In this document: one piece after another, positions 11,134 through 62,044 of the stretch | How positions within the stretch are numbered: the first letter of the stretch is position 1 | How the letters are laid out: every line of letters begins with the position of its first letter | DNA from: Emiliania huxleyi CCMP1516 | Lineage: Eukaryota | Assembly (NCBI RefSeq): GCF_000372725.1 | Contig: NW_005201421.1 | Location: forward strand, 62,001 to 126,000 | Direction: 5' to 3' | DNA length: 64,000 nt | Notes under the pieces: generated by a model | Databases searched by the model: none | What the model saw: only the letters and a program-made list of their open reading frames with translations | Told to the model about the DNA's origin: nothing | Translations under genes and position numbers: made by a program

Positions 11134-14100
11134 CTACAACGCGCTGGTATGCAGGACCCGCCGGCGCTGGAACAGGGCGCCCGAGGCCGCGTCGCTCGCG
11201 AGCTGGGCGCTAAAGGACGGCCGCGTGGCGCGCGTCGCCGCTGGGGCGGGTGCCGGCGCCGCCTTGCCCCCGACGCCCTCCTGCTGCGCCGCCGCCTCCG
11301 CGCGCCTCGCCATCCGCAGCTGCATCTCCAGCATCACATTCGCCTGCGTGCCCCCCGCGGGAGGAGCGGGCGGACCGCTCGGGCGAGCGGCCGGGGCCGC
11401 GCCGGCGCCTTTGGCCATGCGCTGCTTGCGGGCCCTCTCGCCGTCGTCGCGCGCGTTGTCTGCGTGGGCCGCCTTGAGAGCGCGCACCACTCCGGCAATC
11501 GGGCCGAGCAGCTCTGCCGGGCTCGACGCGGGCTTCTCGCCCAGCCAGGCGGCGAGCGCCTGGGGGTTTAGGGTCAGGGTCAGGGCCAGGGATTAGGGTC
11601 AGGCGAGGCTTAGCTTCTCGTCTAGCCAGCCGGGCGAGCGCCTTGACGCGCCCTTCCGCCGCGGCGAAGTTGCCACGCAGCTCCTCGAGCGGCCCCTCGA
11701 CCTATGCAAACGGCGAGAGGCGTGAGGCGTCGCCCCGCACGCCACGCAGCCCTCGCTCGCAGCCCCCCCGCCTCCGCGGCGAACGCGCCCATTTGCCGCG
11801 CAAACGCGCCCTCGCCGGCCTTTGCAGACTGCACCGTGCGCATGGCGGCGCCCAGCTTGGCCAGCTCGGCGCGCATCTCTCCAAGGTCGGCGTCCTTGGC
11901 GCCCTCCAGCTGGGAGAGCTGCTCGTCGAGCGCGGCCACCGACTCGGCGGCGGGCGCCTTCTCGAGGCGGCGGCAGAGGTAGTGCAGCAGCGTCGTCTGC
12001 GAGTCGGCGGACTTGACCTGCACCAGCTTGGCCAGGTCGGCGAGCTTGAAGCCGTAGGCGCCGCCGCGCGCCGACTGGCCGTTGAGGTAGTTTCCGACGC
12101 AGAGCACTCGCTGCAGGAAGGAGCGGAGGCCCTGCGATGAGAAGACCTGCAGCGAGGGCTCGGCGAGGGCTCGGAGGAGGCTCGTGGGCGGGGAGCGGGC
12201 GGCCCCACACGCAAGAGAGACCTGCTCGATGGCCTCGGCGAGCATCGCAACCTCCTCCCCCATCGCCGCGACCGCGGGACCGAGCGTGAGCGTCGCCTGA
12301 CGGGCAGGGCCAAGTGTGTTCGCCCGTGGCGCGCCGCCCCTCCACACCGCTGCCCGCGTGAGTCTGTGGCCGCCTGCAGGCAGTTGAGCCGCAGGCCGAG
12401 CCGGTCGACCTCGCCGAGGCAGAGAAAGAGCTGCTCGACGCGGCCGAGCGACTCGCGCTCCCCCGAGAACTCGCGCACCGTCTCGAGCTCCTCCGCGGTG
12501 GGCATCGCCGACAGGAGCGCCGACACCTGCTCCAGCGAGAGCGGCGGCCCGTCGCACACGCGCGCCTTGATCTCGCCGTCCGGCAGCCGGAGCCTCGCCA
12601 TGGCGATGGCGACGTTGTTGGAGCGCTTGACGTCGATGAGCGCGATGTTCTTCTCGGCCTTGCCCTTGGCCGCCGCCGGCGCGCCCTTGCTCTCCTTCTT
12701 GGCCGCGGCGGGAGGCGCGATCCCAAAGACCTCTTCCACCTCCGCCGGGTCGAGGTCCGCCTAAGAATAGATCCAGACCTACTGACGGGCGAATCGAGAG
12801 CGACCACCCCTCCGCCGGCCCTTTCCGCCTTGGAGTCGTCGATCTCTTCGAGCCACACCGTGCCGGCCAGCCGCGCGTCGGGGATCTTGGACCAGTGGAG
12901 AGGCTTCAGGGGGAGGGCGGGGGTCCGCTTCGCCTTTGGCGGGACGAGCGGCCGCGCCAGGCTCGGAGGCACGGGTGGCGGAGGGGGGGCGCCCGGAGTC
13001 GACGGCGGCGGAGGGGCAGGAGGAGGAGGAGGGGCGCCACCGGCGATCGGCGGCGGCAAGGGGGCGCCGCCGAGGGGCGGCGGAGCGAGGGGCGGCGGAG
13101 CGAGCGGCGGCGGAGCGAGCGGCGGTGGCGCCAGAGGCGGCGGAGCGAGCGGCGGCGGAGCGAGCGGCGGTGGCGCCAGAGGCGGCGGTGCGAGCGGCGG
13201 CGGAGCGAGGGGCGGTGGCGCCAGAGGCGGCGGTGCGAGCGGCGGCGGAGGAGCGAGGGGCGGTGGCGCGAGAGGAGGTGGCGTGGCCGGTGGCGGCGCG
13301 GCAGGCGGCGGCGGCGTCTTCTTGAGCGCTTCGAGCTCGGCCTCGGCCCGAGCGAGGGCCTCCCTCAGCTGAGCGATCGACGCGTCCCTCTCCTTGAGGC
13401 TCTCTCCGAGGGCCTCGCCCGCATCGCTCGCATCGCCGGTCGCCTCTCCGGAGGCGGCGGCGGCGCCTCGGACCACCTTCTCTGACGCCGCTGCCGCTTC
13501 CGCGGCGGCCTGCACGGCGCGAGCCTTCTCCAGGGACTCTGCCGCCTCGCTCCTGGCCGCAGCCTCCTTCGCCTCTGCCGCTTCCGCCGCGCCTTGCGCT
13601 GCGGCAGCCTGCTCTTTTGCCTTTGCGGCCTCGCGGCGCCAGCGCTCCACCTCGGCCTCAAGCGCTCGCACCGCCTCGGAGTGCGCAGCCGCGGTCTCGT
13701 CCGCCGATGCGTCTTCCTGCGTGCCGCGCGAGGGCGGCGGCGGCGCTGGCGGCTGTGCGACGGCGGGCGGCGGCTGCGATGGCGGTGAAGGCCGCGCTTG
13801 TGGCGAGGGCTTGGGAGGAGGGCCACCCGGCGGTGGCGGCGGCTTCCCTCGCGGTGGCGGCGGCTTCCCTCGCGGCGGCGGTGGCGGCCGCGCCGGAGCC
13901 GGTGCGTCGCGGCTGCAGCCTTGGTCGCCCGCTGTCTGTAGCTCGGTGGAGTCCTCAGCCATCTCTCGGTCGAAGATTCGGACTTGCGTGTCGAGCTCGT
14001 CGCCGCGGCCAGAGAGGAGCCGGCGCGACGCCTCGAGGAAGCCCGCGGCCGCGAGCTCGCCGCGCAGCTCAACGCGGTCGCTGATGGACGCGCGGCCCGA

Positions 14101-16407: not shown

Positions 16408-19400
16408 TCACGACCACAGCTCCTTGACAAGCCTGCCCTCGCCCTCCATCCGAGACACGAAGGCGGCAGCCTCCGCCTCGCTCAGCTTGCCGTGCTCGAC
16501 GGCGGTGCGCTGGAGCGCCAGCACAACCTCCCTCCCCATGGCGGTGCCGCCGCAGATGTAGAGGTGGCCGCCGCGGCAGCCCAGCAGCGACCACACCTCC
16601 CTCCCGTCCTCGCGCAGCAAGTCCTGCACGTACACCTACCGCACGTTCTCACGGACGAGTCCTGGACGCATCCCGTCCTCGCGCTGCAATTTGTCGCAGC
16701 GCCCACACCTTGCGCGCTCCGTCGCGCGAAAAGGCGCAGCGCAGCGTGCCGAGCAGCTTGCCCTCGAGGGCGGCGGCCAGCTCGTCCTCGTACAGGTAGT
16801 CGCCCCGCGCGTGCCGGCAGCCAAAGTAGAGCCGCGTCGGCCCCGTCCGGCCGCGCCCCTCTGCCGCAGCCACGCGCATCTCCTGCAGGGCGGCGCGGAT
16901 CCACAGAGTCAACGAGTGGCCACGCTCATTGCTACGGTCGGAGGGGTGCCGCAGTCTCCTGCAGGAAGGCGCGGAACGGGGCGATGCCGGTGCCGGGACC
17001 GACCATCACCACCGGCGTGGCGCCGTCGCAAGGCAAGCGGAACGAGGAGCGGCGCACAAACGCGACGACGGACCGGCCGGCGGCCGCCGCCTCGAGCTGC
17101 GTGCTGCAGACTCCGAGCTTGGTGCGGTGCGGAGCGTCCCTGAACGGCTCGCGCAGCACCTGGCCTCGGGGCGACCTCGGGTGAACCTCGGGCGATCTCG
17201 GGCGATCTCGGGTGACCTCTGCTGATCTCGGGGCGACCTCGGGCGATCTCCGGTGATCTCGGGTGATCTCGGGTGATCTCGGCACCTTGACGGTCAAATG
17301 CAGCGTCGTGCGGTCGAGCGACGGCGAGGAGGAGATGGTGTAGTAGCGCGGCGCGAGGCGGGGCAAGAGCTCGAGCAAGCCTAATGGACGACGGGCGGTG
17401 ACTCACAGCCTCGCACCGTCCACGAGGCGGGGCGCGAGCTCGAGCAAGCCTCCGAGCGGCGGAGAGAGGGAGGGCATCTCCTGCAGCAGCTCCGCGGCGC
17501 CCCGGCCCGCCGCGACGACGTGCGCGGCGTACTCCTCCTTGCCCGCCCGCGAGGAGAGGTGCCTTCATCCACAACGCGGCAGCAAAGTCAGGTCCCTCGC
17601 CCGCCCCGGCCCGCCCTTGCCCGCGCCCGCGAGGGAGGAGGAGGCGCCTCAGCCGCGCCGCCTCGGCAGGGTCGGCTGCGTGCGCCGCCAGGAAGCGGAG
17701 CAGTGGCTTGGACGCGGCCGCGCGCAAGTCTGCGACCCAGCGCAGCGCCTGCCCGACCGCGCACGGGGTCGGGAGGATCGGGTTAGGGCTAGGGCTGCGG
17801 GTCTGGGGTGGCTAGGGTTAGCAGCGCCTGCCCGACCGTGCACGGGGTCGGCAGCGGCGGCGGCGGCGCGTCCGACCCGGCGGAGGGGTGGGCGAGGCGG
17901 AGGCGGAAGGTGGAGAGCGGGTCGAGGCCGAGCCGCGCGGCGGTGGCGGCGGCGAGGGCGGCGCCTGGGGTAAGGGGTCAGGGCCAGGGTCAGGGTCAGG
18001 GTCAGGGTCAGGGTCAGGGTCAGGGTCAGGGTCAGGGTCAGGGTCAGGGTCAGGGTCAGGGTCAGGGTCAGGGATAGGGTCAGGGTCAGGGTCAGGGTCA
18101 GGGTCAGGGTCAGGGATAGGGATAGGGATAGGGTCAGGGTTGGGATCTGGGTCCGGGTCCGGGTCTCGGGTGGAGGCGGCGAGAGCGGCGCCGTTGTCGC
18201 AGAGGACAGCGAGGTCGTCGGCGCACTCGTACCTCAGCCAGGTGACTCCGCGCCCGTCGCCTGCAGGGACATGTCCACGACACGTCCGGGACATGCCCGC
18301 ACCTCAGCCGGGTGACTCCGCGCCCGTCGCCCGCGGAGAGCGAGATGTGGCGGACCGATCCGCTGGACGCGTCCCGGCAGAGCTCGCGGTTCTCGCAGAC
18401 CTGCGGGACGTGCCACGGACATGTCATGTCATGTCATCGACATTCACGGACCTGATGTCATGGTGAGAGCGTCAAAAGTCAGGCCTGGCCCGCCGCCAGG
18501 CGCTGCTTCGGAAAGACGGCTCCGAGCCAGGCGAGGGGAGGCGCGTCGGAGCCAGGCTCGGAAACGCCGCCCGCCGCCGCCGCCGCCGACGGCGCCGCCG
18601 CCGACGGCGCCGCCGCCGCCACGACGGCGACGTAGCTCGGCGCGGGCGCCTCCTCCTCCGCCTCCTCCTGGCCGTCTGCCTGGTCGGACCCGCCGCAGAG
18701 GGCCACCCACAGGGAGGCGCGCCACGACTCAAAGTCGGCGTCGATGTCGCCGTCGTCGTCTCCCAGCCCGAGCGGCGCCAGCCTGCAGGAAGGGTCCAGG
18801 AAGGGTCCGGGAGAGGGCCTAGTCGCGCAGTCGGCGAGACACAGGCGGAGCGGTGTGCCGTCTCGCTCCGAGGGCGGAGAGGCGCGCGTCCACCCACTTG
18901 CCCATCGAGTTGTAGTGCTCGTACTGCGTGTTGCCTACCTCTCCACGTGCCGGTGTGAGCTGACCCGCCCGCCATCGCCTCACTCCTCTCGCCACTGGTC
19001 GCCGAGCCCAAACGCTGCATACTGCAGCGCCGCGAGGCAGCCGGGCTCGCGCGACGCGTCGCTGGCCCAGCGGTGGAAGGCGACCGTGTTGTCGGTCGGG
19101 TCTCCCTCGCCGTGTGTCGCCAGCAAGAAGACGCAGGGCCCCTCCACGCCGCCCAGCTCCTCTGGCGGGAGCTCCTCGAGGTCGAGCGCCCGTGCGGCGT
19201 ACCCCCGCACACGCGCCTCGCGCATCAGCGTGGTCGCGAAGCCCTCAGCCGTGCCCGTCTGCGAGCCGAACAGGATCGTCATCGGCCCGCGACCCGCCGC
19301 TTTCGCGCCGACGGCTCGGACGGGCGCCGACGGCTCTTCTCGAGGCGGAGGAGGAGCGCGCCGGCCGCGCTTCCAGCGAAGCAGCAGCCAACTGGCAATA

Positions 19401-27089: not shown

Positions 27090-27361
27090 TAATAAATAAA
27101 TAAATACAACGGACACGCCAAACGAGGGGTGGGAGAAGGACAGGGTCCCCACCTGCACAAGCAGGATCTTGTAGGACGATCAGGGACACAGGGGAACGAA
27201 CTTTTTAGTCTTGGTCGCTAGACGCGGAGTTTCTTTTCTCGTGTGGTGTACCTGTGTTAGTGCCAGTGCGCGCCAGTCCCGTGCCCAGTGTCGTGGGGCG
27301 TAAATTCTTTTCTCGGTGTACCTGTGTTAGTGCCAGTGCGCGCCAGTCCCGTGCCCAGTGT
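27090..27361 (-). mobile_element. Dispersed repeat copy A (internally deleted relative to 58004-58333)
   Basis: 27090-27197 is the near reverse complement of 58226-58333; GTGCGCGCCAGTCCCGTGCCCAGTGT occurs twice here and inverted at ~58004-58029. Confidence 0.7.
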
Positions 27362-33600: not shown

Positions 33601-35603
33601 TGCAGCGCCGTGCCGTCGTTCTCCGCGCGCGCCGCCGTGTCAGCGCCCGCCTGCAGCAAGCGCCGCACGACGGCGGGGTGGTTGAAAGAAACGGCGTACA
33701 TCAGCGCGGTACCGCCATTGCTCCTCTGCAGGTTGACCTCAGCGCCGCGCCGCACCAACAGCTCGACCACCCGCTCGCGGCCTTCCTGGGCGGCGGCCAT
33801 TAGCGCGGTGCTGCCGTTGCTGTTCTGCAGGTTGATCTCCGCGCCGTGCCGCAGCAGCAGCTCGACCACCCCCAAGTGGCCGTACACGGCGGCGCCCATC
33901 AGCAGCGTGAGGCCGCTCAAGCCACCTCTCTCGTATGTCGCGTCGACCCGCCCGCCTTCCTCGAGCCACTCCAGCACCGGCTCCTCCTCGCCTCGATGTG
34001 CCGCTGCGATGACCTTGTCGGAGACTGCCGCGGCACCGCTCGAAGCCCGCTCCGCCGCCGCCGGCGACAGATTACTCGGCCGCACCCGCACGCTCTCGCC
34101 GACGCCCTCGAGCGCCACAGCGTACCGGCCGCCCTCGAAGCTCCGCGCCACGCCCCGCTGCCCGTTCAGCTCGGGGCGGGCCGAGAGCCCGCCGAGCACG
34201 ACTCGCTGGCCGAGCAGCGGCGCGTCCACAGCTGCCGCTGCCGCGCCCGAGGAGGCGCCGCCCGCCCCCGCCCGGCCGTCTGCAGCCGCCGCCGCCTCCG
34301 ACAAGACCTTGACGCACGCGGCGTTGCCCTTCTCCTTGGCCCACTGCAGCGCCGTCTTGCCGTTTTCATCGCGCGCCGCCGCGTCTGCGCCCGCCCGCAG
34401 CAAGTGCCGCACGACGGCGGGGTGGTTGAAGAAGGCGGCGAGCATCAGCGCGGTGAAGTCTTTGTTGCTCTGCAGGTTGACCTCAGCGCCGCGCCGTATC
34501 AGCAAGTCGGCCACCCGCTCGTGGCCTTGGACGGCGGCGTTCATCAGCGCGGTGAAGCCGATGCTGTCTTGCAGGTTGACCTCAGCGCCGTGCTGCAGCA
34601 GCAGCTCGACCACCCGCTCGTGGCCGTTGAAGGCGGCGCCCATCAGCAGCGTGATGCCGCTCAAGCCGCCTCTCTCGTACGTCGCGTCGACCCGCCCGCC
34701 GCCTTCGAGCCACGGCAGCAGCGCCGCCTCGTCGCCTCGCTCAGCTGCTGCGAGGATATCATCGGGGGCTGCCGCGGCACCGCTCGACGCCCGCCCCGCC
34801 GCCCCCGCTGGAGATAGCGTCTTCGCGACTCTCGATCCAGCCGAGGAAGCGCCGCCGGAGGAAGCGCCGCCTGCGCCTTCGCCGCCGGCTGCCGTCGCCG
34901 TGGGCCGTCCCGCCAGCATATCCTGGACGTGCTTCTTGAAGGCCTCAACGCACTCGGCGTGGCCCTTATCCTTGACCAGCTGCAGCGCCGTCATGCCGCT
35001 CGCATTGCGCGCCGCCGTGTCTGCGCCCGCCTGCAGCAAGCGCCGCACGACGGCGGGGCGGTTGAGGTAAGCGGCGAACATCAGCGCGGTTTCGCCGACG
35101 CTGTTCTGCAGGTTGATCTCCGCGCCGTGCTGCATGAGCAGGTCGACCACCTGCTCGTGGCCTTTGGAGGCGGCGAGCATCAGCGCGGTGTGGCCGTTGA
35201 TGCTCTGCAGGTTGACCTCAGCGCCGTGCCGCAGCAACAGCTCGATCACCCGCTCGTGGCCGTGCATGGCGGCGGTCATCAGCAGCGTGAGGCCGCTCAA
35301 GCCGCCTCTCCCGTAGGTCGCGTTGACCCGCCCGCCACCCTCGAGCCACGCCAGCACCGCCGCCTCGTCGCCTCGCCCAACCGCTGCCACGACCTCGTCG
35401 GAGACTGCCACGCCACCGCTCGACGCCGCCGCCGCCGGCGACAGATTACCCGGCCGCACCCGCACACTCTCGCCGCCACCCTCGAGAGCCACCGCGTAGC
35501 GGCCGCCCTCAAAGCTCCGCACCACGCCCCGCCGCCCGTTGAGGTCGGGGCGTGCCGAGAGCCCGCCTAGCACGACGCGCTGGCCGAGCAGCGGCGCGAC
35601 CAT
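30684..35603 (-). CDS. Ankyrin-repeat / protein kinase / RING protein (probably one gene across the N gap)
   Basis: Four ankyrin blocks (TALMxAA..GH) and three LGQRVVLxGLSxRPxLNG modules. After the gap: GEGGFGRVY, AVK, HRDVSAGN, DVGLAR, GKPGYMDP kinase; C3HC4 RING CDLC…CGH…CEAC…CPTC; RGG tail. Confidence 0.8.
32189..32288. other. Assembly gap (N run)
   Basis: N characters; the flank at ~32000-32188 looks like low-quality read-end sequence. Confidence 0.99.
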
Positions 35604-45765: not shown

Positions 45766-48700
45766 ATGAGCGGCCACGCCAATGGCCACAACGGCGTGGG
45801 CCCGGGCAAGTTTGTCTACCCAGACTCGCCGCTGCACGAGCTCTTCCACCAGCAGGTGGCGCGGACTCCCGACCGGATCGCCGTCATCGACCAGGAGCGG
45901 GAGCTCACCTACACAGAGCTCAAGCGGCAGACACAGACCCTGGCCCTGTCGCTGCGGCACCGCGGCGTGAGCGAGGAGCAGCCGGTCGTGCCCATCTTCA
46001 TGCCGCGCTGCCTCGAGTTTGCCGTCGGCTACATCGCGGCGCTGTCAGCGGGCGGCGCCTACCTCCCTCTGGAGGTCGGCTACCCGGCGGAGATGCTGCG
46101 GCGTGTGCTCGCCGAGGCGAAGCCGGTGCTGACGCTGACGCTAGAGAGCCAGGCGGCAAAGCTGCCCGCCGACGCGCCGCGCCTCTGCCTCGATCCCGGC
46201 TGGGAGGAGGCTTGTGCGCTGCTGCCGGCCGAGCTGGCGGCTCTCCCGTCGCTGGCGACGAGCCTCGAGTCGCTCGCGTACTGCGTCTACTCTAGCGGGA
46301 CGACGGGCGAGCCGAAGGGCATCTCCTGCCCGCACCGCGGCTCCGTCCTCTCGTACTCCCACCGCGCGCACCACGCGCCGTACGCGGCGGACGGCTCCGA
46401 CCGCGAGGCATGCAACGTCTTCTTCGTCTGGGAGATGCTGCGGCCGCTGCTGCAGGGGGCGACGCTGGTCGTGGTGCCGGACTCGGTCATCTACGACCCT
46501 CCCGCCCTCTCCTCCTTCCTGGAGCGGCACGCCGTCACCCGCATGCTCTTCACGCCCTCCCTCCTCGAGGCTGTGCTCGACTCGCCCGCCCTCGCCTCTG
46601 GCGACGAGCTGCGGCGCGCCTTTGCCGCCTTCCGCGTGGTCGTGCTGTGCGGCGAGGTGGCGACGGCGGAGCTGCGCGCGCGGGTGCTCTCTCTCGCCCC
46701 CGCCGGCCTCAAGCTGCTCAACCTCTACTCCATCTCCGAGTGCCACGACGTGTCCATGGTCGACCTCGCCGCCACGCCGCCGCCCGAAGGAAAGTACTGC
46801 TCGACCGGCCCGCTGTTGGACGGGGTCGAGGTGCTCATCCTGGAGGACGCGAACCAGGCGGAGAAGTCGGGCGAGGCGCAGCGAGGGGCGGACGCCGCAA
46901 AGGCTCTCCGCCCCGTCCCGCTCGGCTTGCCGGGCGAGGTGTTCGTCTCCGGTCCCTGCCTCGCGCGCGGGTACTTGCAGCGGCCCGACCTCACCGCCAA
47001 GAAGTTCCTCCCGCGGCCTCCCTCCCTCTCGGCGACGCCCGCGCCGCAGACGCCCGGCCAGGACGCGGCCTCGCCCGCCCTCTACTCGCGGCTGTACGAC
47101 ACGGGCGACTGGGGCAGGCTGCGGCCGGACGGGACGCTTGAGATCTTCATTGATAGTTAATTAATCGTTCACCAGTTAATTAATCAGGCTGCGGCCGGAC
47201 GGGACGCTTGAGATCTTGGGGCGGCACGACTCGATGCAGAAGATACGCGGCTACTCGGTGGAGCTGCGCGCCGTCGAGGCGGCGCTGCTGCAGTGCCAGG
47301 GGGTCACCTCGTGCGTGGTTCGCGTGGTGGGCGAGGAGGGGACGGACAAGCATCTCGCCGCCTTCGTCGTCTTCGAGAGAGAGCGAGACGGGGGCAGCGC
47401 CGGCGAGGCGGCGCCGCGCCAGGCGCGCGCGGAGCTGCACGCGGCCGTGCCGCACTACATGGTCCCGTCCTTCATCGTCCCGATGGACGAGCTCCCGACC
47501 AACGAGGTCTATTAATTAATTATTAATTAATTAGGTCCCGTCCTTCATCGTCCCGATGGACGAGCTCCCAACCAACGAGTTCTCGGGCAAGCTCGACCAC
47601 AAGGCGCTGCCGAGGACGCTGCCGGAGCTCCTCCGCTTCGTCGAGAGCAGCGGCGGTGCGCGGGGGCCGCAGCTGCGCACGCCGACCGAGGCTGCGGTGG
47701 GCAAGGTGTGGGCAGAGGTCCTCGAGCTGCCCGCTGCGATGGTCGACCCCGAGGAGTCCTTCTTCGACCAGGGGGGGCACTCCCTCCTCCGCGCGACGAG
47801 GCTAATTAACAAGTAATGGTTAATTAACAGTTAATTACTTCATTAATTAGGCACTCCCTCCGCGCGACGAGGCTGATCGCCGCGCTCAACCAGGGAGGCT
47901 ACCCGGCGGTGCGCGTCGCCTCCCTCTTCGAGCACCCCACCATCCGAGAGCTGTCCGCGCACCTCGACGCTGACGGAGCCAGCCGCGCGGACAAGGCCCC
48001 GCACACGCCCCTCCCCCGCTCCGTCGTGGAGAAGGAGATTGCGGCCCTGGCGGGCGGCATGCCCGTCGGCTTCGACTCGGCTCTGCGCGCGTACTGGCAC
48101 GGCGTCTCTCTCGCGAGCAGGCGGGTCCTCTCGGCTCCTCTCGGCTCCTCTCGGCTCCTCTCGGCTCCTCTCGGCTCCTCTCGGCTCCTCTCGGCTCCTC
48201 TCCACTGACTGGCACGCAACTCTCTCTCTCTCGCGAGCAGGCGGGTCGACAGCTACTAATAATATATAATTAATAATATTATTAGGCGGGTCGACAGCTG
48301 CTCGTCGCAGTCGGCGAGCCGCGTGGGGAGCTACTCGTCGCTGCTGGCTCTCGGGGCGGAGGGGGGGCGGGAGGAGGGGTGCAAGGCGCGGGAGGAGCCG
48401 CTGCAGCTCGGCTGCGCGGGCGAGTGCGTCTTGCTCACCGGGGCGACCGGCTTCCTCGGCGCCTTCGTGCTGCGCGAGCTGCTCGCGGCTAATTAACTAT
48501 GAATGAGCTATTAATTATCAATTAGGCGCCTTCGTGCTGCGCGAGCTGCTCGCGGCGGGGGAGAGAGGGCCGAAGACCATCTTTTGCCTCGTGCGCGCGT
48601 CGGCGACGGAGACGGCGCTTCGACGCCGTGAGGGGCACGATGGCACCGTGAGAGCGTCTCCTTCACACCTGCAACTGTGAACAGGCGCTCGAGCGCGTGA

Positions 48701-51575
48701 TGGGCACGCTGGAGCGGTTCGGGCTCTGGGAGTCCGAGGGCGGGTGGGCGGCGCGCATCGAGGGCATCGAGGGCGACACCGCTCTCAAGAGCCTGGGCCT
48801 CTCCAACGACCACTACCAGTACCTCGCCACTGTGGTCGACCGCGTCATCCACGCCGCCGCGCGCGTCAACCTCGTCTTCCCGTGCGCGATGCCCTAGCTA
48901 GTCACCCGTGAGCAGTGTCGGTGGTGGGGAAGTGGGCGCGATGTCTCTCGCTCGGCTGAGGTTCTGGGCTGAGCGGCTGTCGGAGTGTGTGCCGCAGGTA
49001 CGCGCGCCTGCGCAGGGACAACGTCCTAACCCTAACCCTAACCCTAACCCTAACCCTAACCGCAGGTACGCGGGCCTGCGCAGAGACAACGTCGTGTCGA
49101 CCACGCGCGTGCTCCACTTCGCGATGGACCACAAGGTGAAGCCGGTGACCTACGTCTCGACCGACGCCGTCTTTCGGCCAGGCGACGCGCGGCCCGCGCG
49201 CGGAAGAGAGGGCGAGGCCGAGTGTGAGTCCTCTTTCACACCGCCCCCCCCTCTCCCTCCCTCAGGCACGCGCGGACCGCACGCAGAAGGCGAGGCCGAC
49301 TTGGACGCCGAGCTGCCCCTTCTCACGACCGGCTACGCGCAGTCCAAGTGCGTGGCGGAGCTGCTTGTGCGCGAGGCGGCCAAGCGAGGGCTAATTAGCT
49401 AACTAATTAACTATTAATTAACTACTAATTATTAATTAGGCGGCCAAGCGAGGCTTGCCCACGACCATCGTCCGGCCAGGCAAGCCCGAGATTACCCGAG
49501 ACTACCCGAGACTACCCGAGACTACCCGAGATTACCCGCCTGCCCACGACCATCGTCCGGCCAGGCAAGCCATCGCCGGCTGAGACACCTCTGCGTCTCT
49601 GCGTCTCTGCCCTTCACGCTCCCCGCGTGTGCGCCATTTAGGCAACCTTGGTGGGTGCGACCCGCGCGCCGCCATCCGACCGCGAGGCGCGCGTTCGCTC
49701 CTCCGCGCCGATGACACGCCGATGACACGCCCGTGACACGCGCGTGACACGCCCTCCTCCCCCTGCAGGCACGCGCCAGCTCATCCACGCCGAGAACGTG
49801 TCGATCGGGCGCACGCCCCGCTTCGACGCCGCAGAGCAGGTCAAGGCTGCGCTCGACGCCGCCGAGCGGTCGCGAGGCGGGCCGAGCTCTCTCTCGGACA
49901 AGGTCGCCGCCGCTGGCTGGAACAGCTCCGACTCCAACTTTCTGATGCTGGTTGGCTGCGCGCTGCTCGGCGCGGCGCCTGGCGGAGTCGGCGGGTGGAG
50001 CTGCGAGCTGACGCCGGTCGACTTTGCGGCGCGCGCAGTCGTGGCCCTCTCGGGCGACTCTGGCGCGGTCGGCCAGGCGTACAACCTGGTCAACTCCGAC
50101 GCGACTCTGCCTTGGGACGCCGTGCTCGACGCGGCGCGGAGCTGCGGCGTCGCGGTCGAGTCGCTGCCGTACGCAACCTTCCGCGAGCGGCTCGAGGCTG
50201 CCGCCGGCGGCGCGTCGGAGGCGGCGCAAGCCATCCTCCGCCCGCTGTGGGACTTGCTGAGTCCACTGGCCACTCCGGAGGTGTCGCCGCCGTCGCGCGC
50301 AGCCGTTCCCGCCTGCGCCCCTTCACGGCCGTGTGTCTGTGGACAGGCACTCGCCGCCAACGACGCCACCGCCTCCTTCGAGAGCGCCGCCTTGCGCGCC
50401 GTCTGCAGCCGTCGCGGCGCGGGCGCCTACCCGCCTCTCGACATCGCGCTCGTGCGCGAGTATTGCTGGCACCTCCTCGACGCTGGCGTCTTCCCGCGGC
50501 CGGCGGTCGGAGGCGCGGCCGGGGGCGCCGAGCCGCGCCGCCTCACCGGCCAGGTCGAATCTCGGGTAATCTCGGGTAATCTCGGGCTTGCCTGAGCCGC
50601 GCCGCTTCACCGGCCAGGTCGCCGTCGTCACCGGGGCCTCGGGCGGGATCGGCGCGGCGATCGCGCGGCAGCTCGCTGCGGCGGGTGCGGCGGTCTGCCT
50701 GGCGGCACGGCGGAAGGGGCGGATCGAGTCGCTGGCGGGGGAGCTGTCCCGCGCGCACGGCGTGCCCACCCTCGCCGTGGTTGCGGACGTGACCGACCGG
50801 GCGTCCGTCAAGGCGTGCGTGCGCGAGGCGGAGGGTGCGCTCGGCCCTGTGAGCGTGCTGGTGTCCAACGCGGGCGTGATGCACTACACGCTGATGAAGA
50901 ACCTGCACGAGGACGAGTGGGCGCAGGCGGTCGACGTCAACTGCAAGGGCATGCTCAACGCCGTCGGGGCGGTGCTGCCCGGCATGCTCTCGCGCGGCAG
51001 AGGCCACATCCTCACAATCACCTCGGACGCGGGCCGCAAGGCCTTCCCCGGCCTCTCCGTCTACAGCGGCACAAAGTTCTTCAACGAGGCGGTCTCGCAG
51101 GGCTTGCGCGCCGAGTGCGTCGGTACGGGCGTCAAGGTGACGACCGTGCAGCCGGGCGATTGCCGCTCCGAGCTCCCCGCTTGCACGACCGACGAGGAGG
51201 CGCGCGCTCGCTACGCGCAGCGGCCCCGCGTCTCTGCTCCCGCGATGCACCGCGCTTGTCGCTCCTCTCCACGCCGCACCCGCCCTCCCCTTGTACTCCT
51301 CACCGTGCCCGTCTCTCCTCGCGCGACGCACACCGGTCTGCCCCTAAGGCGCGCGGCATCTACGCGCAGCCGTCCAAGGACCGCAACGTCTGGCTCGACC
51401 CGCTCGACGTCGCAGACACCGTCGTGTGGGCCCTGTCGCAGCCGCCGCACGTCGCGGTCCGCCCCCGGGAGGAGGTCGTCGAGCCGCGAAGGCGTGACAC
51501 GTCCCACCACGCGTCCTCGGCACGTCCGCATAGGTCAACGAGGTCCTCGTTGAGCCGCGGGACGCGCCCGCGTGA
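45766..51575 (+). CDS. NRPS-like A-T-R-R reductase (glycine betaine reductase ATRR-type), multi-exon
   Basis: A domain YSSGTTGEPKG, CNVFFVWE, NLYSISE, YDTGD, KIRGYSVEL; T domain FFDQGGHSL; R1 LLTGATGFLG, GYAQSK; SDR R2 VTGASGGIG, NAG, YSGTK; stop …EPRDAPA*. Confidence 0.9.
49026..49060. repeat. Intronic telomeric repeat (CCCTAA)n
   Basis: CTAACCCTAACCCTAACCCTAACCCTAACCCTAAC read directly. Confidence 0.9.
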
Positions 51576-53039
51576 GGCTGGCAGAGCGGCGGCGCCCCGG
51601 CGGGAGAGGGGGGCGGAGCGGCCGGCACCGAGAGGCACTCTGGCGGGAGACGGAGGGGAGGGGGAGGGGGCCGGGGAGGGGAGGGAGACGGGGTCGGTGG
51701 CTGGCTTTCGGCACGGCGGTGTCACATGGAATCCCATGCATGATGCAGCATCACATAACACACATGAACATGATGCATCCTAATACATGATCCAGGCAGG
51801 CGTAGAGAGCGTGGCTGGTGGCCGGTGGCGGTGCGGTTTTTTACTATACGAAGTGGAGTCTGTCCGACGGCGACGCCCGCGGGTCAAATGGAAAGGTGTA
51901 AGTCGTAACAGCCAACACGCCGCAAAGGCAAAACAAGAGCCAAAAATCTCGAGCCGTGTAACAGAAGATAAACACGCGCAGTGGCCGTGCACCGTTTTTA
52001 AATCCAAGGTGCGTCACACACACGGTCACACGACCGAGTCTCCGCAAAGGGTCCACCGTGGATGGAGATGGAGCGTGAAGTTGCATTCGTTGAAGAGGAA
52101 AGGCTCAAAGCGAGCTGCTGGACCCCGCCATGGCCTCGTCGATGTGGCCGGTGCGCCCCTGCTTGCAGTAGAAGCAGACCTGCTCCGCCGGGTTCTTCTT
52201 CTCCGAGCGTACAGCCCGGCGTAGTGCAGATGTCGGCCACCGGCTCGGTTGGAGACACGTTCGGTGCCGGCGAGGAGGACGAGGTCGAGGCAGCAGACGA
52301 GGTGGAAGCCTGCGGATCGCCCTTGGCCTTGCACTGGCACGCGATAACCTCCCACCAGAAGAGGGAGCAGCGCGTCACCAAGTCGTCGTGGTCGGCAAAG
52401 GTGCCAGGGGAGAGGGTCTTGTGGCAGTAGAGCTCGTCCTCGTCGAACTCCTCAGGCATCGTGTCTGTGAAGAGGGTTGCGTGCATGTGCCATGTCGGCC
52501 TCGGCCCCGTCAGACAGGTTGACGTTGCGCAGGAAGATGAGCTGGTCGCGCCTTGTTGCGCTGCTCTTCGAGAGTTTGGGCTTCCTCCAGGCTCAGCTGC
52601 GAGACATCTCCGGCCAGCATCTGCGCCTCCAAGTCAGCAATACGCCGCCGCTCGAAGCTGCGCTCCCCATTGTTGGCGATCTGGAGGTCCTCGAGCTGCT
52701 TGATGTACGCGAAGGCGTCCCAGATGGAGTTTACGATTGTGTGAGATCCCACGAATCCGCGCAGCCAGCGCAGCCGATTGTATTGCTTCGTGGCCGTCGT
52801 CGGGGTTAGGGTCGCGGAATCCTGTTGTGAAACGAAAAAAGAAATGAACCCGGGCTGCCGCGAGAGAGTCGATTGTGGACACGATTCCCCCAGCTTGATG
52901 TCCTCAAATGCCCACAGAGTATACTGGTTGTGCTCACAGGTTGTGCTACATCAACAGGGGTGCAACTGAGAGGCTGCAACTAAGGAACAGCGTTTTGCTG
53001 GGCGTGGTACCAGCGTACGGATGGACAAGCGTGGTACCA

Positions 53040-53166: not shown

Positions 53167-54092
53167 CAGGCGGGGCTCAGATCGCCCCCGCAGCGATATG
53201 GGTAGCACTGACCGATATGTAGCACCACCAGGCGTTATGGTACTTGGTAGCGGCGCCGATATGGTATCACCCCCAAGTGATATACCACGGGGCGCTGTAT
53301 AGCACCTTCCAGCGACAAGTATCGGCCGAGGTGATATGTTATCGGGGTGGGGCCATCTGCATCTCACCGCAGTTCTGAGGTGTCTTTACCGTTTTTAAGC
53401 GTTAGACTTAGAGCCGTACGGGGTGTGGACCCTGAGTTGACCAGGGGTTGTGCGCCGGGCCCTCCTGCTCGGCTCCAGCGAGTAGACAAGTGTTGTCATC
53501 AACAGAGTAGAAGGATCTGACCTCGGGGCCGATGTGACCAAGCGCTGGTAGCGTGGTTTAACCTCACACCCATGGTCTCACAGTGTGCCGGCAGTCGCCG
53601 AGCAGTGTCGCTCACACAACGAGCCGCAGCACAAGTGACTGAGGGCCAGTGAGGGCGAGCCCATCGCTGTCACAGCTGTGGCAGCCGCACAGTAGGCTGT
53701 GTCAACTGTGCAGAGTGTGTGAGCAGCAGAGGAGCTGCTCTCCAAGCTTCAGGCGCAAAGAGCTGCATGCCACCGAAAGCGCTGTCGAGGTTCGCCGAGC
53801 GCGGCGCAGGTTGGAGGACACCGTCACCGACGAGCGCGTTGGAGTATTCACTCCGGACAAAGACGGCGACACGCACACGAGCTGCGGCCGTGTCGCCGTC
53901 ATAGCGGCGAGGCGCGGGACCGTCTGTGGCGAAGTGGGTCGCGTCCTCCGATTTCCTCAACTCACGGTCCGCTCCCTCTAACGCGTAAGTTCCTGACACT
54001 CGACGGCTCTCTATGCTCTCTATCTCTCTCTCGTTTGAACACGTGCCTTTGATTTGAAAGAGAAAAAATCTAAACACGCAAGCCGTGGCGGC

Positions 54093-55531
54093 TCACGCAG
54101 ACGAGAGGGGGGGGAGGCGGCCAGCCTCGTGCAGGACTCGCAGCAGCCGGTTGGCTTGGCTGAGGAGCCCGCCGTCGGGTTCGAGAGAGAGGGTGTTGTG
54201 CGCGGCCTGGAGCATCGCGACCAGCGTCCCTTTCGGGAGGGAGAGCGCCGAGCGGATCGTCTCCACCTTGACCAGCAGCGGCAGCTCCTTCTCGGCGGCG
54301 GCGGCGACGGCGGTGGAGGCAACGGCGACGGGGGTAGCTGCGGCGGCTGCAGCGGCGGAGGCGGGCGCCGTGGCGGGAACAGTGTGCGCCGCGAGGAGCT
54401 GCTCTAGCCGTGCAACCTTCTCCGGCAGCTGCGCGGGCGGGTGGGAGGCGGAGGCTGCGGCGGAGGGGGTGACGCCGCGCGTCTCGAGAAGCGCCTGCAC
54501 GGCACCCTCGACGGCGACGACCCGCCCAAAGATGCCCCCGCTCGCCGCCCGCCCGCCGGCCGCCCCTCCGCTCGACTCAACGTACTCCTCGAGCGCTTCG
54601 AGCCGAGCTATGATCGTGCCAGCGTCGCTGGGAATAAAGGGGCGCGGCGCGGCGGAGGCGGTGGAGGAGGCGGTGCGAGGCGGCGGCTCCGTCCCGGCGG
54701 GGCCCGCGGTTCCCCCTCCTCCCGCGCCTCGCGCCCCTCTGCCGGCCAAATCTGCGCCCCGCAAGACCTCGACCTCGATGAGGCCACACGCATCGCGCAG
54801 CGCCTGGAGAAGGGGCATCCGCGAAGGCTCAGGCGGGGAGGGGCGCTCCGGGGGGCGAGCCCCTCGCCTCGCCGCTCGCTGCCTCGGTCGCCGCCTTGTG
54901 GCCCCACACGGGCGTACCGTTGACGGCGAGGACCTGGTGGGGGGGGGGGGGGGGGTGCCGTGGACGCGTCGTGGACACACGTGCCCCGGGGGTACGCGTG
55001 GCCGTCCAGAGGCGCGAGGACCGTGTCTGCGGCGCGGAGCCTTCCCTCGGCGAGCCCGCCCGGCAGCACCTGCAGGAAGGCTCCGAGGAGCTTCCGAGAA
55101 GAGTCCTCGCCTTGCCGACGGCGGTCCCTGCCCCGGCAAGCGCCTCCGAGACGCGAGGGTGTGTGTCGACGGCGCCTACGGGAGGGGGTCCGAGCAGGTT
55201 CCGAGAAGGTTCGCAGGCGGCGATGATGCGTGTCGCAGGCGCCAGTCAGCCGCACTCCCCACCTGGGCACCCGCGCGCATTCCGACTCCGCTGGCCGCTG
55301 GAACCAAATCGAGAGCTTTTTGGAGGAGGAGCTCGAGGTGTGGCACGAGGCGTCCGACGCCTGACGCCCGCAGCTGCGAGCGGGGCCCGCCGACGAGGCG
55401 GAGGCGGAGGCGGAGGCGGAGGCGGAGGCGGAGGCGGAGGCGGAGGCGGAGACAGGAGCCCTGCCCTCCCGTCCGCTGCGAGCGGCCACAGAGGCGAACG
55501 AGGGCACGGCGGCCCGCGTCGTCGAAGGGGG

Positions 55532-56827: not shown

Positions 56828-57891
56828 TTGGAGGCCCTTTCCGGCACCCAGCGCGGCACGACAGCGGGCGCGAACAGAGACTGATCGAGTACGGTTCGTT
56901 GTGAAGTGGGCGCGCCACCCAACGAAGAGCCTAGGTAGGTGCGGATCGGCAAGGCGCAACCCATCTTTTTGCCTTATTATATCATCCTTGGGTTGTGATC
57001 TAAGAACTTGAAAGCAACCACGCACCACGGGGCCCTTGCTGTCTAGAAATATATACGCGCGACCTCCCGCGAGCGCGGCGGGATCGGAATTGCGGCCGGA
57101 GGGAAGGGCGAGCCGCCGCCGCCGCCGCCATACCATCAGCGACGACGACCGCGGCTCGCCCCAAACGCCAGGCGCTGGATCGGCAGTAGGGCTCGGGCGG
57201 CGCAGCGTAGGCCTCGAGCCACACGAGTCGCCGACACAACCCCCCCTCATCGACGTGATGGCAGCACCCGCTGCCGGCCGATGCAAGCTGCCGCCTCCAC
57301 CGCACCAGCGACACTGGCCGCGGCTCGCCGCCACGCGCCGGCTCGGAAGAGGGGCTGTCGGCAGCGCAGCAGAGCGGCACGCCTCGTCATTCGAGCAGCA
57401 CCAGCCCCCCTCTTCGACGTGACGGCCGCTCTCGGAGCCGGCCGGTGCGCGCTCGACCCACGCCCCCCCTCGCACAGCAGACTGGCACGAACTAGCACAG
57501 AGAAGAAAAGGTGGTGGCGGGGCCGCGGCTGAAAATGGCTAGGAGGGGAGGTCGGGCCCCGCGCCCGTCGGATGATCATCGGAAGGCGAACAAGAGGAAG
57601 AACTCAGAGGAGAGGGGAGCCTCATCCGGAGTGAGGATGAGGACCTTGCGCGAAGGGGCCCTGAGCGGTGACGTCGTGTGAGAGTACGCGTCGTGTTCAT
57701 GTCTGGTGTTCATTATAGCTCCGAGTAGAGGGGGGGCGGTCTGCTGCTAGGGGAAACCCGGAGCGCGGAGCCAACCCTCGGAGACCCGTGTTTACTTTTA
57801 AGGCCCTTTCCCTGCGAACGCGCACCCCCGGGGCTAGGGCTCTCTTGCCCGCAACCCGATCCCGATCATCCGGCCCGCTGGGTGCGCTTCT

Positions 57892-58333
57892 TAGCTCCCC
57901 GGCCCTGGATGTGAGGCTGATGACTGCACTCCAAGTGCTCCAAAGTGCTCACCGACACAGGTTCGACCCGGGTAGAAGAATTTTAGAACTAACTCTTCCT
58001 CCGACACTGGGCACGGGACTGGCGCGCACTCTGGCGCTATAACAGTAGAAGAATACGTGGCTGGGTCCACAGCGATTGTAGGAGAGCGCAACCAGTAGGA
58101 GGCCCGCGCCTGCCCCCGTGCCGCCGGGTGCAACCTGTCCTATACGAGAGAGGAATCCCTGGGACCCTGTCGTGTGGGTGAACCCTGCCCAGCCCCCCTC
58201 CGTGTCGCGATGCGCTCCCCGCTCCCGTTCCCCTGTGTCCCTGATCGTCCTTCCAAGATCCTGCTCGTGCAGGTGGGGACCCTGTCCCTCTCCCACCCCT
58301 CGTTTGGCGTGCCCGTTTTATTTATTTATTTAT
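57892..58333 (+). mobile_element. Dispersed repeat copy B ending in (TTTA)n; possible non-autonomous or non-LTR element remnant
   Basis: Shares blocks with 27090-27361 (inverted) and with 19522-19577 (direct). Confidence 0.65.
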
Positions 58334-59199
58334 AGGAAATTTGGGGGAACACTTGACGGTCGCGGCCTTCCGACTCGCGCCTCCGCCTCACTGGCACTAT
58401 TGTAGCCCTGGCCGGTGCGCGTGTGGAGTTGAAGTTCCCGAGTGAAAATTCGAACGCGTTCTCTCACGGTGACCAAAAAATGTCCACCTCAGAGGCACCT
58501 CCGGAGGCAGGCCGCCGCACGCCGGCGACACAGCTCCAGCTGTCGAACTGACCCGCAGCTCCTCTCAGAGCGGAAACTGTGACGAAAGTTGACTGAGGCG
58601 GTTGTCAGGAACCATCATACGGATCACATGGTGGCTCTCTCATGACGGGAGACCGCCCGACCACTCCTGGGTGGCACTGCCACCGGTGTCGCTCGACGTC
58701 CTGTCGACAGCGTGCCGACAGCGACACAGACCATGTGGGACGCGTCGAGTATCGACCTCTACTGCTTACCCAGTCTTCGAGTGTATCCTGCCTGTGGTCC
58801 CACACCCACTGGTGTCCGTCTCAGAGACCGCAGGAGGTCATGAGGGTCGATGGGAGTGCCAACCCCACAATGCCTAAAGACCCAGCCCAGTACAAGTTTG
58901 CCCACTCGCGTATTAGAAGAAAATTTCGACCGTGTAGTCGGCCCGCGGGTCCCGCGCAGCTGCGCCGCCGCCAGCTCCACCGTGGAGGCTCCAGCCCAGC
59001 AGCCAGCACCGCTGCGTAGCGCGAACTCCCGCTAACGGAATCTTAACCCTGCACCTTTCCCTCTCCTTATAGAATTCCTACTCTACCCGCGAGCCCTGCG
59101 CTTGCCGGCGCCTCCGGCGCGCGCGCCTCTGGCTCTCCGGATTCCTTTCGTGCTAAAACTTTGACGCCATGTCGTCCGCGGTCGTCGCCGCCCCGAACC

Positions 59200-62044
59200 T
59201 CAAAACTGATCTACCGGCAAGTGAGCGGTGGGGAACGCGGCCTCCGCCGCCGCCTCCGCCGCTGTTGGCGGGGGCCGAGCGGCGCTGGCCGCCGCGGCCG
59301 CGGGGAGGTCCTGCTCCTGGCTGGCTGCAGCGGCGTCCTGCAGCCGCCTGTCGACCGAAGTGAGGAGCTGCTCGAGCCGCGCTAGCCTATCGGCAAGCAA
59401 AGTCCGCCGTGCTCCCTCGGACCGACTTCCTCCCGGGGAGCCGCTCGAGCCGCGCTCGCCGCTGCTCAAGCGCGTGGAGCTGCGCCGCACCGCCCCCGTC
59501 GCCGCCGCCGCCGCCGCAGCTGGTTGGCGGAATGGTCGCGGCGAGGAGGGGCGGGGTAGACCCGTTGGCGCGCGCCTACGGGCAAGGGCTCCGAGAAGGG
59601 TCCGGGACGGGGCGAGGAGGAGCGGGTTGGACCCGCCAGTCCTACTACCGACGGCGGCGTGGCGGAGGGGCGGTGCGAGAAGCGGCCGGTCTCTGGGTCG
59701 CGGCAGCAGCCCATCTCCTGCGAAGTGGCCGCCAAGCAAGGGTGGGTGAGCCGAGTCAACCACGAGCGGTCTCTCTGCCGTGCTCTCTGCCGCGGGGTGG
59801 TGTGTGGGGGGGCGGCGAGGCGTCTGGACGGCCGTGTCGCCGCGGTGTCCGGGAAGTGTCCGGGAAGTGTCCTGGGAAGGAGCCGTGCGAGCCCTCTCCT
59901 GAGTCATGATCGAGATGATGGAGGAGAGGCCGACCACGCCGGTCAGCATCGCCATCGCCCCCACGAGCCGGCCCGCCGTCGAGAGAGGCACGAGATCGCC
60001 TGCGCTCAGCCAGTCCAGTCCGCCAGCCTTACTACTCTCGGGCACATCTCGGGCACATCTCGGGCACATCTCGGGCACATCTCGGGCACATCTCGGGCAC
60101 ATCTCGGCTTCAGCTCGCCATACCCCACCGTCGTCACCGTCACCAGCGCCCACCAAATCCCGTCACGCACCTGCAGCCGAGGTGCAGCCGAAGTGCAGCC
60201 GAAGTGCAGCCGAGGTGCGGCCGAGGTGCGGCCGAGGTGCGGCCGAGGTGCGGCCGAGGTGCACCGACTGGAAGGGCGCCAAGCGGCACTCCCCTTCCTC
60301 CTCCTCCTCCCCGCCTGGCTCGACGCGGCCCTCGCACTCCGCCCCGGCCACCTACTCACGAGTCGCCAGCTGGGGGGGGGGGGAGACTCGCACGCCGTAC
60401 CGCCCCGGCCCGCCCACCCACACGCCGCCGCCGGGCGAGCCGCCCGCCACGAAGGCGCCCGCCTGACGGCGAGGATCGCGGTACGCTGTCCTCTTGACAG
60501 AAGGCGCTCAGCCTTTCCTGTAGTCTCGGAAGCGTCTCGGAAATGTCTCGGAAATGTCTTGGAAGCGTCTCGGAAGCGTCTCGGAAAGCGCAACGCGTAG
60601 CCGAGACGAGATGAGAACAGGCGGGCCGAGATGCGCCGAGATCGTACCCGCGCCTCCGCGTGGAAGACGAACCCTCCCAGGATCAGGTTCTGCAGCATGA
60701 GGAAGAAGAGAAGCAGCCGCAGCGCGGGCAAGCAGCGGCGGACGCACGCGGCGAGGGCCTTGCGAGAGGACGCGGGGAGGCGGGCGAGGGGTAGCCGAGA
60801 GGTAGCCGCGATGCAGCCGGGAAGCAGCGGCGGACGCGCCAACCTCTCGCCTGATCTCGCCTGATCTGTCCTGATCTGTCCTGATCTGTCCTGAACTCGG
60901 CGGATCTGGCCTGATCTCGGCGGATCTGGCCTGATCTCGGCGGATCTCGGGCCTGCAGCTCGGAGGACTCTTTTGCGAAGCGGAGCAGCCGAAGGATGCG
61001 GACGAGGCGCAGCACGCGGACCATCGCCAGGAAAGCCTAGGGTTAGGGTTAGGGTTAGGGTTAGGGTTAGACGAGGCGCAGCACGCGGACCATCGCCAGG
61101 AAAGCCTGGCGGGCTGGCGAACTAAGGAGTGTGCACTGCTCGCTGGGCGGAGACCGCGGGCCATCGCGGGGAGGGCCTGGTGGGCGGTGGGAGGTGCCTC
61201 GGAGGAGTCTCGGAAGTGCCTCGGAGTGTCTCGGACGCGTCTCGGGCGTGCCTGCGGGAGGAAGAAGAGGACGAGGCCGATCCAGAAGGGGAGGATCGCC
61301 GCGAGGTCGATGACCATCATCGGCTGCTTGGCGAGGCGCAGCCGCGCCTGCCACCCATGGAGAGTGGAGGAGAGGGCTCAATGAGAAGTGACTCCTCGCG
61401 CCTCGCCTCGTAAGGCTGAGCTGCGCCTGGCAGGCGGACGCGGGAGGCGGCTGCCTATAGGGTGTGGCCACGGGCAGGTCATCGGAATGAGCCGGCAACC
61501 GCCCAGTTGGGGAGGGCGCGGGCTGCGGCCTCCGCCCGTCCTCCTCCGCCGCCTCGTCGCCACGCCCGTCGGGGGCGACGATGATGCGAGTGATGTACTC
61601 TGCCGTGAAGCCGACAGCGACCAGCGCGTCGATGAGCCGCCAGCCGGGCCACGACGCCATCGCCGGCTCGGATTGGAGGACAAAGCAGAGGGTGGAGACG
61701 AGGATCGCGCCGAGGATGAGCTACACGCAACAGGGGGTCCTCTCTCAAAAGGCGTCATCACAGCGGCACGTGGGCAGGCTCGGATCCTACTGTGCGCCCG
61801 TCGGGTCCGTCACTCTTGATGTGCTAGTCGCTTCTCTCCCAACGTGGTGGAGAATTCTTTTGCTCACCCAGTGCACAACGAGTGCCGCGCGTGACGAGGA
61901 CGGCCGGTTGAGCAGGTCGTGGATCGCGGCGCGGTGTGTCGGCGCCCGGATGAGCGAGTTGGTAGCGACGGCGCTCGTGAGCGGCGGCGTGAGGTTGGAG
62001 AGCGGCGCGCTGCGTAGCGGGGCGCCGACGTACTCGCTTGACAT
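59200..62044 (-). CDS. Voltage-gated (Kv/Shaker-like) potassium channel, multi-exon
   Basis: FTAEYITR (S2), IDLAAILPFW (S3), VRVLRLVRILRLLRFAK (S4), IWWALVTVTTVGYGD filter, S6 GAMAMLTGVVGLS. Confidence 0.92.
61038..61069. repeat. Intronic telomeric repeat (TTAGGG)n
   Basis: TAGGGTTAGGGTTAGGGTTAGGGTTAGGGTTA read directly. Confidence 0.9.

Follow-up and report, generated by a model that had tools for sequence, protein, structure and literature searches.

The window, that is, the whole 64-kb stretch of DNA that we analysed, has a GC content near 68% and carries on its minus strand a voltage-gated K+ channel gene in which a short insert, built of duplicated exon sequence and telomere repeats, lies at the start of the exon encoding S4 (hereafter the S4 unit). 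The gene was modelled by Pfam searches and by spliced alignment of P0021, an Ion_trans channel translated from an ORF of an MMETSP transcript. P0021 is a cluster member of P0001 (JGI), the closest protein, which is 94% identical to one exon; in the spliced alignment of P0021 to the window, 438/467 residues are identical at unsplit codons. Both proteins match PF00520/PF07885 (Ion_trans) and the copied stretch, which codes for AFLAMVRVLRLV, covers the start of S4, in agreement with an earlier note on this DNA that had placed the insert in the S4 region of a K+ channel.

59200..62044, minus strand: voltage-gated K+ channel gene, about 12 introns (P0021 spliced alignment, Pfam)
61252..61347, minus strand: upstream exon (S3, ends ...FFLPQ; P0021 spliced alignment)
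61177..61251, minus strand: oldest intron module M1, 75 nt, with a GC donor, 10-11-nt tandem repeats and CAG
61106..61176, minus strand: older module M2, 71 nt, a decayed exon-start copy, filler and CAG (the previous acceptor)
61070..61105, minus strand: copy 1 of the S4 exon start, 36 nt (38 with the AG at 61107-61106), predicted to be intronic now; starts with GC, identical to copy 2, followed by an in-frame TAA, same in metagenome contigs L001 and L002
61037..61069, minus strand: telomere-type filler, (TAACCC)5 plus TAG, with CTAAC motifs and the putative new acceptor (use predicted from P0021)
60953..61036, minus strand: exon beginning with copy 2 (61036-61001), encoding S4 (AFLAMVRVLRLVRILRLLRFAKESSELQ; spliced alignment to P0021)

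Read on the minus strand, the S4 unit follows ...GCCAG and consists of copy 1 (61105-61070) and (TAACCC)5 TAG (61069-61037), after which comes copy 2 (61036-61001). The two copies are identical over 36 nt and the AG preceding them, so that an exact 38-nt duplication with a period of 69 sits around a core of (TAACCC)5T; 31-33 of the 69 nt are filler and the rest is duplicated sequence. This confirms the arrangement that had been described before (CAG, copy, telomere repeats with TAG, identical copy), with the duplication lengthened to 38 nt by counting the AG. The unit begins with GC and ends with TAG, its 69 nt fall within the local intron length range, and on the plus strand its filler reads as GGTTAG units, an exact TTAGGG run. 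Only two metagenome contigs matched the exon motif, L001 and L002. Both contain the 69-nt unit unchanged, in a genotype distinct from the window elsewhere, and no empty allele was present in these two contigs (0/2). In both, a G to A change (Ala to Thr) is found in copy 2 only, and their two copies thus differ by one base. M1 measures 154 nt in L001 and L002 and 75 nt in the window, a repeat expansion or deletion between genotypes.

The alignment of P0021, whose genotype is about 4% diverged from the window and may lack the S4 unit, demands the removal of a single 215-nt segment, from the GC at 61251 to the TAG at 61037, joining LPQ to AFLAM. P0001 joins LPQ directly to AFLAM as well, and an insertion at this site is absent from the 13 more distant homologues aligned. 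Three modules of the form GC...AG, stacked one after another and 75, 71 and 69 nt long, make up the 215-nt intron. The decayed copy at 61176, in M2, matches the S4 exon start at 23 of 31 nt; among 16,938 GC-starting 31-mers, none besides it and the two exact copies scores as high as 23, the next best having 20. The earlier note had taken the 69 nt for a minimal stand-alone intron and the CAG upstream of copy 1 for an exon end. Neither view survives the LPQ-AFLAM join: the 69 nt are the 3′ module of the 215-nt intron, and the CAG closes older intronic modules that include the third, decayed copy of the exon start. Indeed, no coding exon directly flanks the unit upstream, the preceding 146 nt being intronic by P0021, P0001 and the homologues. 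We infer that the S4 unit is itself intronic from the in-frame TAA after copy 1 and from the orthologues that lack the insertion. It is the youngest module of a stacked intron and would move the acceptor. Since its TAG takes the place of the former acceptor, it is predicted to be spliced out along with the older modules. The old acceptor (61106) is still intact and its use would place the in-frame TAA inside S4, so that a working channel needs the TAG of the telomere unit. The claim that the telomeric run supplies both a CTAAC motif, a putative branch point, and the final TAG acceptor stands as far as the motifs are concerned, which are plainly there, the use of the acceptor being predicted through P0021. 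In the pore loop of the same gene, an intron with 11-nt repeats (60001-60120, minus strand) is apparently retained in frame in P0021 and out of frame in P0001; the modelled intron 60087-60035 is unreliable, as P0021 seems to keep sequence there, and was left out of the intron set described below.

The S4 unit exposes a dense class of duplication-plus-filler introns. We scanned the window without bias for direct repeats of at least 14 nt with a spacer and a period of 40-200, a scan that is blind to duplications shorter than 14 nt. This yielded 84 pairs, 50 of which lie in seven multi-copy tandem arrays and were masked, leaving 34 isolated pairs. In ten Markov-block controls of the window, only three repeat pairs arose in total (0-2 per control), which argues that the S4 unit is not a chance structure. 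Periods of 60-85 nt are found in 26 of the 34 isolated pairs (p 1e-14 against a uniform distribution over 40-200, in a range picked after seeing the data). These 26 units, about one per 2.5 kb and of several ages, have duplications of 15-47 nt, and in 19 the period is not a multiple of three. A GY..AG placement is possible for 20/26, and AG/GY occurs within the duplication in 17/26, against 10.2 expected (p 0.0065). Their fillers are telomeric, AT-rich (TAATTA-like, in 68% GC DNA) or made of 10-11-nt repeats, most not being telomeric, and an all-against-all comparison of the 26 revealed similarity of simple motifs only, with no unique element sequence in common. The 26 similar inserts are likely to be scars of DNA-break repair that become introns. 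Five sister units are given here.

47118..47187, plus strand: stand-alone, exon-splitting 70-nt GC-AG intron; 33-nt duplication and AT-rich filler; skipped in RNA contigs of 4/4 runs
48998..49065, plus strand: telomere unit, 68 nt; 34-nt duplication (2 mismatches) and (CTAACC)6; 3′ module of the 184-nt intron 48882-49065
17749..17827, minus strand: decayed telomere filler, 79 nt, 31-nt duplication; predicted exon-splitting
17965..18191, minus strand: expanded (CCCTGA)n filler, 227 nt; predicted exon-splitting
11560..11641, minus strand: decayed CCCTGA/CCCTAA filler, 82 nt, in a formin gene; predicted exon-splitting

The three minus-strand units appear to split exons, since the frame (at 11641-11560, 17827-17749 and 18191-17965) is open only when they are removed. 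Identity and strand of the gene at 17.3-18.4 kb are predicted from frame continuity and splice signals, and Pfam gave no match for its three short exon pieces. The formin was recognized by an FH2 match in a long ORF at 11599-15345. Further long ORFs contain tandem repeats (4959-6059, 27437-28864 and 32073-35603, with units of 66, 156 and 99 nt), which we take to be MORN-like, RCC1-like and ankyrin-like, respectively. Two regions, 53351-54404 and 57040-58620, stand out in each of the four RNA runs by a high summed contig depth and numerous variants and are probably multi-copy repeats or transposon remnants.

Several observations touch on repeats outside the 26 units. Among short-period units (24-39 nt), the window contains four matches, none convincing. 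At 27245-27361 (minus strand), a 47-nt duplication with a 23-nt spacer (period 70) lies outside any obvious gene and resembles sequence near 58040; the size of about 70 nt may thus not be due to splicing alone. Over the whole window, no class is commoner than tandem arrays with a period of 10-11 (23 arrays with at least three copies at score 50), many of which share a CCGAG/CTCGG core. Their units are not palindromic, and an origin of the 10-11-nt intron repeats as palindromic snap-back products was rejected on 23 units (mean 3.35 versus 3.56 when shuffled, p 0.73). Two fillers 1 kb apart, at 49456-49571 and 50530-50621, are reverse complements of one 10-nt unit, CCCGAGA[C/T]TA.

RNA evidence for sister units comes from an ATRR-like NRPS gene of the glycine betaine reductase type (45766-51600, plus strand), with AMP-binding and short-chain dehydrogenase domains, whose nearest named relatives are those of Aureococcus (63-64%) and of a transcript labelled Chrysochromulina (59%). 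It contains about 15 introns, all in the 3′ two thirds, the first 1.35 kb being intron-free. RNA contigs from four studies give at least 14 joints in this gene, all of which can be placed as GY..AG (10 GC, 4 GT). Eight duplication-plus-filler units lie within the gene and all eight are missing from the RNA contigs, seven coinciding with joints listed and the eighth, which is telomere-filled, by arithmetic, although these contigs could stem from strains whose DNA is without the inserts. The intron near 47.5 kb allows two placements, 47462-47534 or 47507-47579. The unit at 47118..47187 splits the conserved TGDWGRL motif. The telomere unit at 48998-49065 is stacked at an older acceptor, like the S4 unit, and the coordinates of the X10 and X12 RNA contigs each leave exactly 184 nt unaccounted for, which correspond to the stack 48882-49065. 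Removal of these 184 nt gives NLVFPYAGLRRDNV, in agreement with the orthologues; the downstream copy keeps the Gly (G-L in 6/8 orthologues), and the upstream copy encodes Arg. Another stacked intron, at 48121-48285 (plus strand), is made of 120 and 45 nt, its 45-nt module (48241-48285) being shorter than any stand-alone intron seen. Six AT-rich, TAATTA-like fillers with exact or near-exact duplications are gathered within 2.4 kb (47115-49453, plus strand; 75-93% AT in the five counted), a cluster that suggests a burst of intron gain in one gene.

Across the K+ channel and ATRR-like genes, we modelled 26 introns, with 16 at 64-84 nt, one of 94 nt, none at 95-146 nt and nine at 147-215 nt, so that the long ones look like multiples of about 70 nt. 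GC donors occur in 17 of the 26. Together with the GC content near 68% and the 10-11-nt intron repeats, these GC donors suggest Gephyrocapsa (Emiliania) huxleyi, a coccolithophore, or a close relative. A YTRAY motif is found at -45 to -8 in 9/26 introns, mostly those with young fillers, and is missing there from the other 17; a requirement for CTAAC is not supported.

The reading that we favour, with a probability of about 55%, is that the S4 unit is a 38-nt target duplication from the repair of a staggered break, in which telomerase extended the broken 3′ end before rejoining and selection kept spliceable outcomes. By analogy, new sequence flanked by a duplication would be what a staggered break leaves behind when it is repaired with fill-in. 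The process would begin with two nicks separated by 38 nt, one of them just upstream of the exon's AG/GC acceptor. The free 3′ end (...AAAGCCT on the plus strand, with 1 nt in register) would gain AG(GGTTAG)n, ending in GGTTAG, and rejoining of the extended end through a 1-nt overlap would leave 38 nt duplicated. The sense strand shows the old AG, copy 1, a stop-bearing C-rich filler, the new AG and the intact exon. In a last step, selection would retain only spliceable inserts, which would explain the C-rich sense orientation, the terminal AG and the 60-85-nt size of the exon-splitting sisters. The older decayed copy at the same site implies that the event recurred and that the intron grew in steps of about 70 nt (75+71+69).

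The G-rich strand of the S4 unit fits such an addition, with the copy followed by AG GGTTAG... and an end at GGTTA/G, whose G is common to the second copy. Telomere-type fillers are C-rich on the presumed sense strand in 5/5 cases, and all three with a readable end (at 61069, 49026 and in the 17820 region) can stop at GGTTAG on the G-strand. Two of six registers per filler allow this stop, at a junction free of splicing constraint, giving by arithmetic about 0.04 for the three. GGTTAG is where human telomerase ends a repeat; our literature search found no haptophyte telomerase RNA or template. At the primed 3′ end, 1 nt is in register in the S4 unit, 2 nt at 48998 and at least 2 at 17749, a weak signal given that the AG is selected; the single nucleotide of priming homology in the S4 unit is forced by the need for an AG. 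Where telomere runs are followed by AGGY in unrelated viral contigs, a duplication accompanies 0 of the 10 loci examined (best 6 nt) out of 17, the remaining 7, from three 162-178-kb genomes, having been left out. For G. huxleyi, the accessible part of one report gives about 66% GC and TTAGGG telomeres (10.1101/2024.05.26.595999). The earlier note had proposed that telomerase-like or telomere-templated healing of a break made the intron: the geometry does fit break repair with telomere addition, but what was made extends an older intron, and telomerase is only one possible source of filler, as most sister units have other fillers.

A repair polymerase acting without telomerase could also have copied the filler of the same break-repair scar, in a theta-like templated insertion whose template was telomeric (DNA or RNA) or an earlier filler nearby. 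Although we find this unlikely for the S4 unit, it is the main rival: fillers are of several kinds, the AT-rich ones cluster in the ATRR-like gene, neighbouring units tend to have the same filler types, which points to local copying and against telomerase, two fillers are the reverse complements mentioned above, and four of the seven AT-rich fillers exceed shuffles in palindromic 6-mers (p<0.03). On the other hand, 12 kb separate the S4 unit from the next pure telomere run within the window, a GGTTAG end is common to all three readable telomere fillers, and the 10-11-nt repeat units are no more self-complementary than shuffles. A different question, which concerns splicing and not origin, is whether the upstream modules are removed first and the 69 nt then leave as a GC-AG intron of their own, recursively with a zero-length exon; the anatomy permits the stand-alone intron of the earlier note in no other form. 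Modules of 69-75 nt, each GC...AG, have the size of stand-alone introns, long introns approximate multiples of 70, removal of M1 and M2 regenerates CAG/GC and GC donors predominate. We nevertheless judge recursive removal improbable, since the 45-nt module at 48241-48285, below the 64-nt stand-alone minimum, indicates that stacked modules need not be spliceable alone and favours one-step removal, and since a single step to the distal AG would be the simpler route.

Non-LTR retroelements that use target-primed reverse transcription are expected to leave a duplication with a simple-repeat tail, and long target duplications around severely truncated simple-repeat 3′ tails, telomeric ones included, would have the same strand geometry as telomerase addition. 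Such an origin is nonetheless very improbable for fillers that have simple motifs alone in common, with no unique element sequence among the 26 and no longer family member seen, and in which filler plus duplication stays near 70 nt. The chance that the insert is inefficiently removed, leaving a null or hypomorphic allele tolerated in a diploid, seems slimmer still: the old acceptor is intact, X10 has low-depth contigs over the intron next to the 215-nt one and no joint falls in the K+ channel gene among those listed (15/140), but the frame is otherwise intact against P0021, the unit is common to a diverged genotype and the sister telomere unit at 48998-49065 behaves as an intron. An assembly artefact (collapsed or chimeric repeat), for which only the repeat-rich sequence speaks, is refuted by the presence of the same unit in L001 and L002, where copy 1 and copy 2 differ at one position, unless these contigs were derived from the reference.

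Going back to break repair with telomerase extension, we tentatively consider it possible, if somewhat doubtful, from this single 64-kb window that most introns of the lineage come from one ongoing process, in which long staggered breaks are patched with new filler, telomerase being one of the enzymes, and AG-bearing scars of about 70 nt are kept, splitting exons or stacking as separately spliced modules. If that were true, spliceosomal introns would arise directly and repeatedly through telomerase, and their length would increase in quanta. The S4 unit alone is a modest case and the class that it reveals is the larger finding, bearing on telomerase writing splice signals into genes, on a non-transposon route to introns at genome scale and on recursive splicing of modules of about 70 nt. 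The source of most new introns is unsettled, and few clear cases support a gain by break repair. The present organism, many strains of which have public genomes and transcriptomes, shows the footprint of birth about once in every 2.5 kb, with units of several ages.

Our full-text literature search returned no telomere-filled introns and no such class in coccolithophores; supplements and subscription papers, those of the E. huxleyi genome paper included, may describe intron repeats. Introners, in the main text available (PMC9860276), fall into families by sequence similarity, have 3-9-bp duplications and in many cases carry terminal inverted repeats, and this text mentions neither huxleyi nor telomeres. 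The likeness lies in many young introns, splice sites from target duplications and marine algae; membership in an introner family was rejected on the simple-motif similarity of the 26 fillers and on their duplications of 15-47 nt, in a scan that sees 14 nt or more, versus 3-9 bp. The genome of the coccolithophore Calcidiscus leptoporus is intron-rich and has pervasive interstitial TTAGGG tracts, which the portions of that report available do not tie to introns or target duplications (PMC13518057). Mammalian short interstitial telomeric sequences (ITS) resemble the S4 unit in a TTAGGG run at a break, sometimes a target duplication from a staggered break, and nucleotides in register at the 3′ end. 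In the available parts of those studies (PMC2246262, PMC7215372), a target duplication occurs at a minority of loci (6/130 rodent, 4/25 primate and 3/66 horse), no human ITS is located in an exon, none is said to provide a splice site, and whether splicing is affected is posed as a question; in contrast, the S4 unit has a target duplication and supplies a predicted acceptor.

In intron gain by tandem genomic duplication of AGGT, as given in the accessible text of a review of seven intron-gain mechanisms that does not mention telomeres (PMC3443670; also PMC3265369, PMC4974935), the duplicated AG/GY likewise yields both splice sites, the first copy holding the donor and the second marking the acceptor. 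Here, however, non-duplicated filler lies between the copies and is often the source of the acceptor, and the 38-nt duplicate alone is shorter than the shortest stand-alone intron (64 nt); with 31-33 of its 69 nt being filler, a pure tandem-duplication intron was rejected for the S4 unit. Closest, along with the mammalian insertions, are the neointrons of Daphnia pulex, attributed in the accessible parts of PMC4202315 to repair of staggered double-strand breaks, with exon-intron repeats of 4-12 bp, filler proposed to be newly synthesised and repeated breaks lengthening young introns; the term 'telomer' is absent from the text of that paper. As in Daphnia, a direct repeat of the adjacent exon flanks the insertion in the S4 unit (38 nt, exact). 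In contrast to Daphnia, duplications here span 15-47 nt, total lengths cluster at 60-85 nt, GC is the usual donor and modules are added at an acceptor that already exists; we regard the class as a variant of break-repair intron gain.
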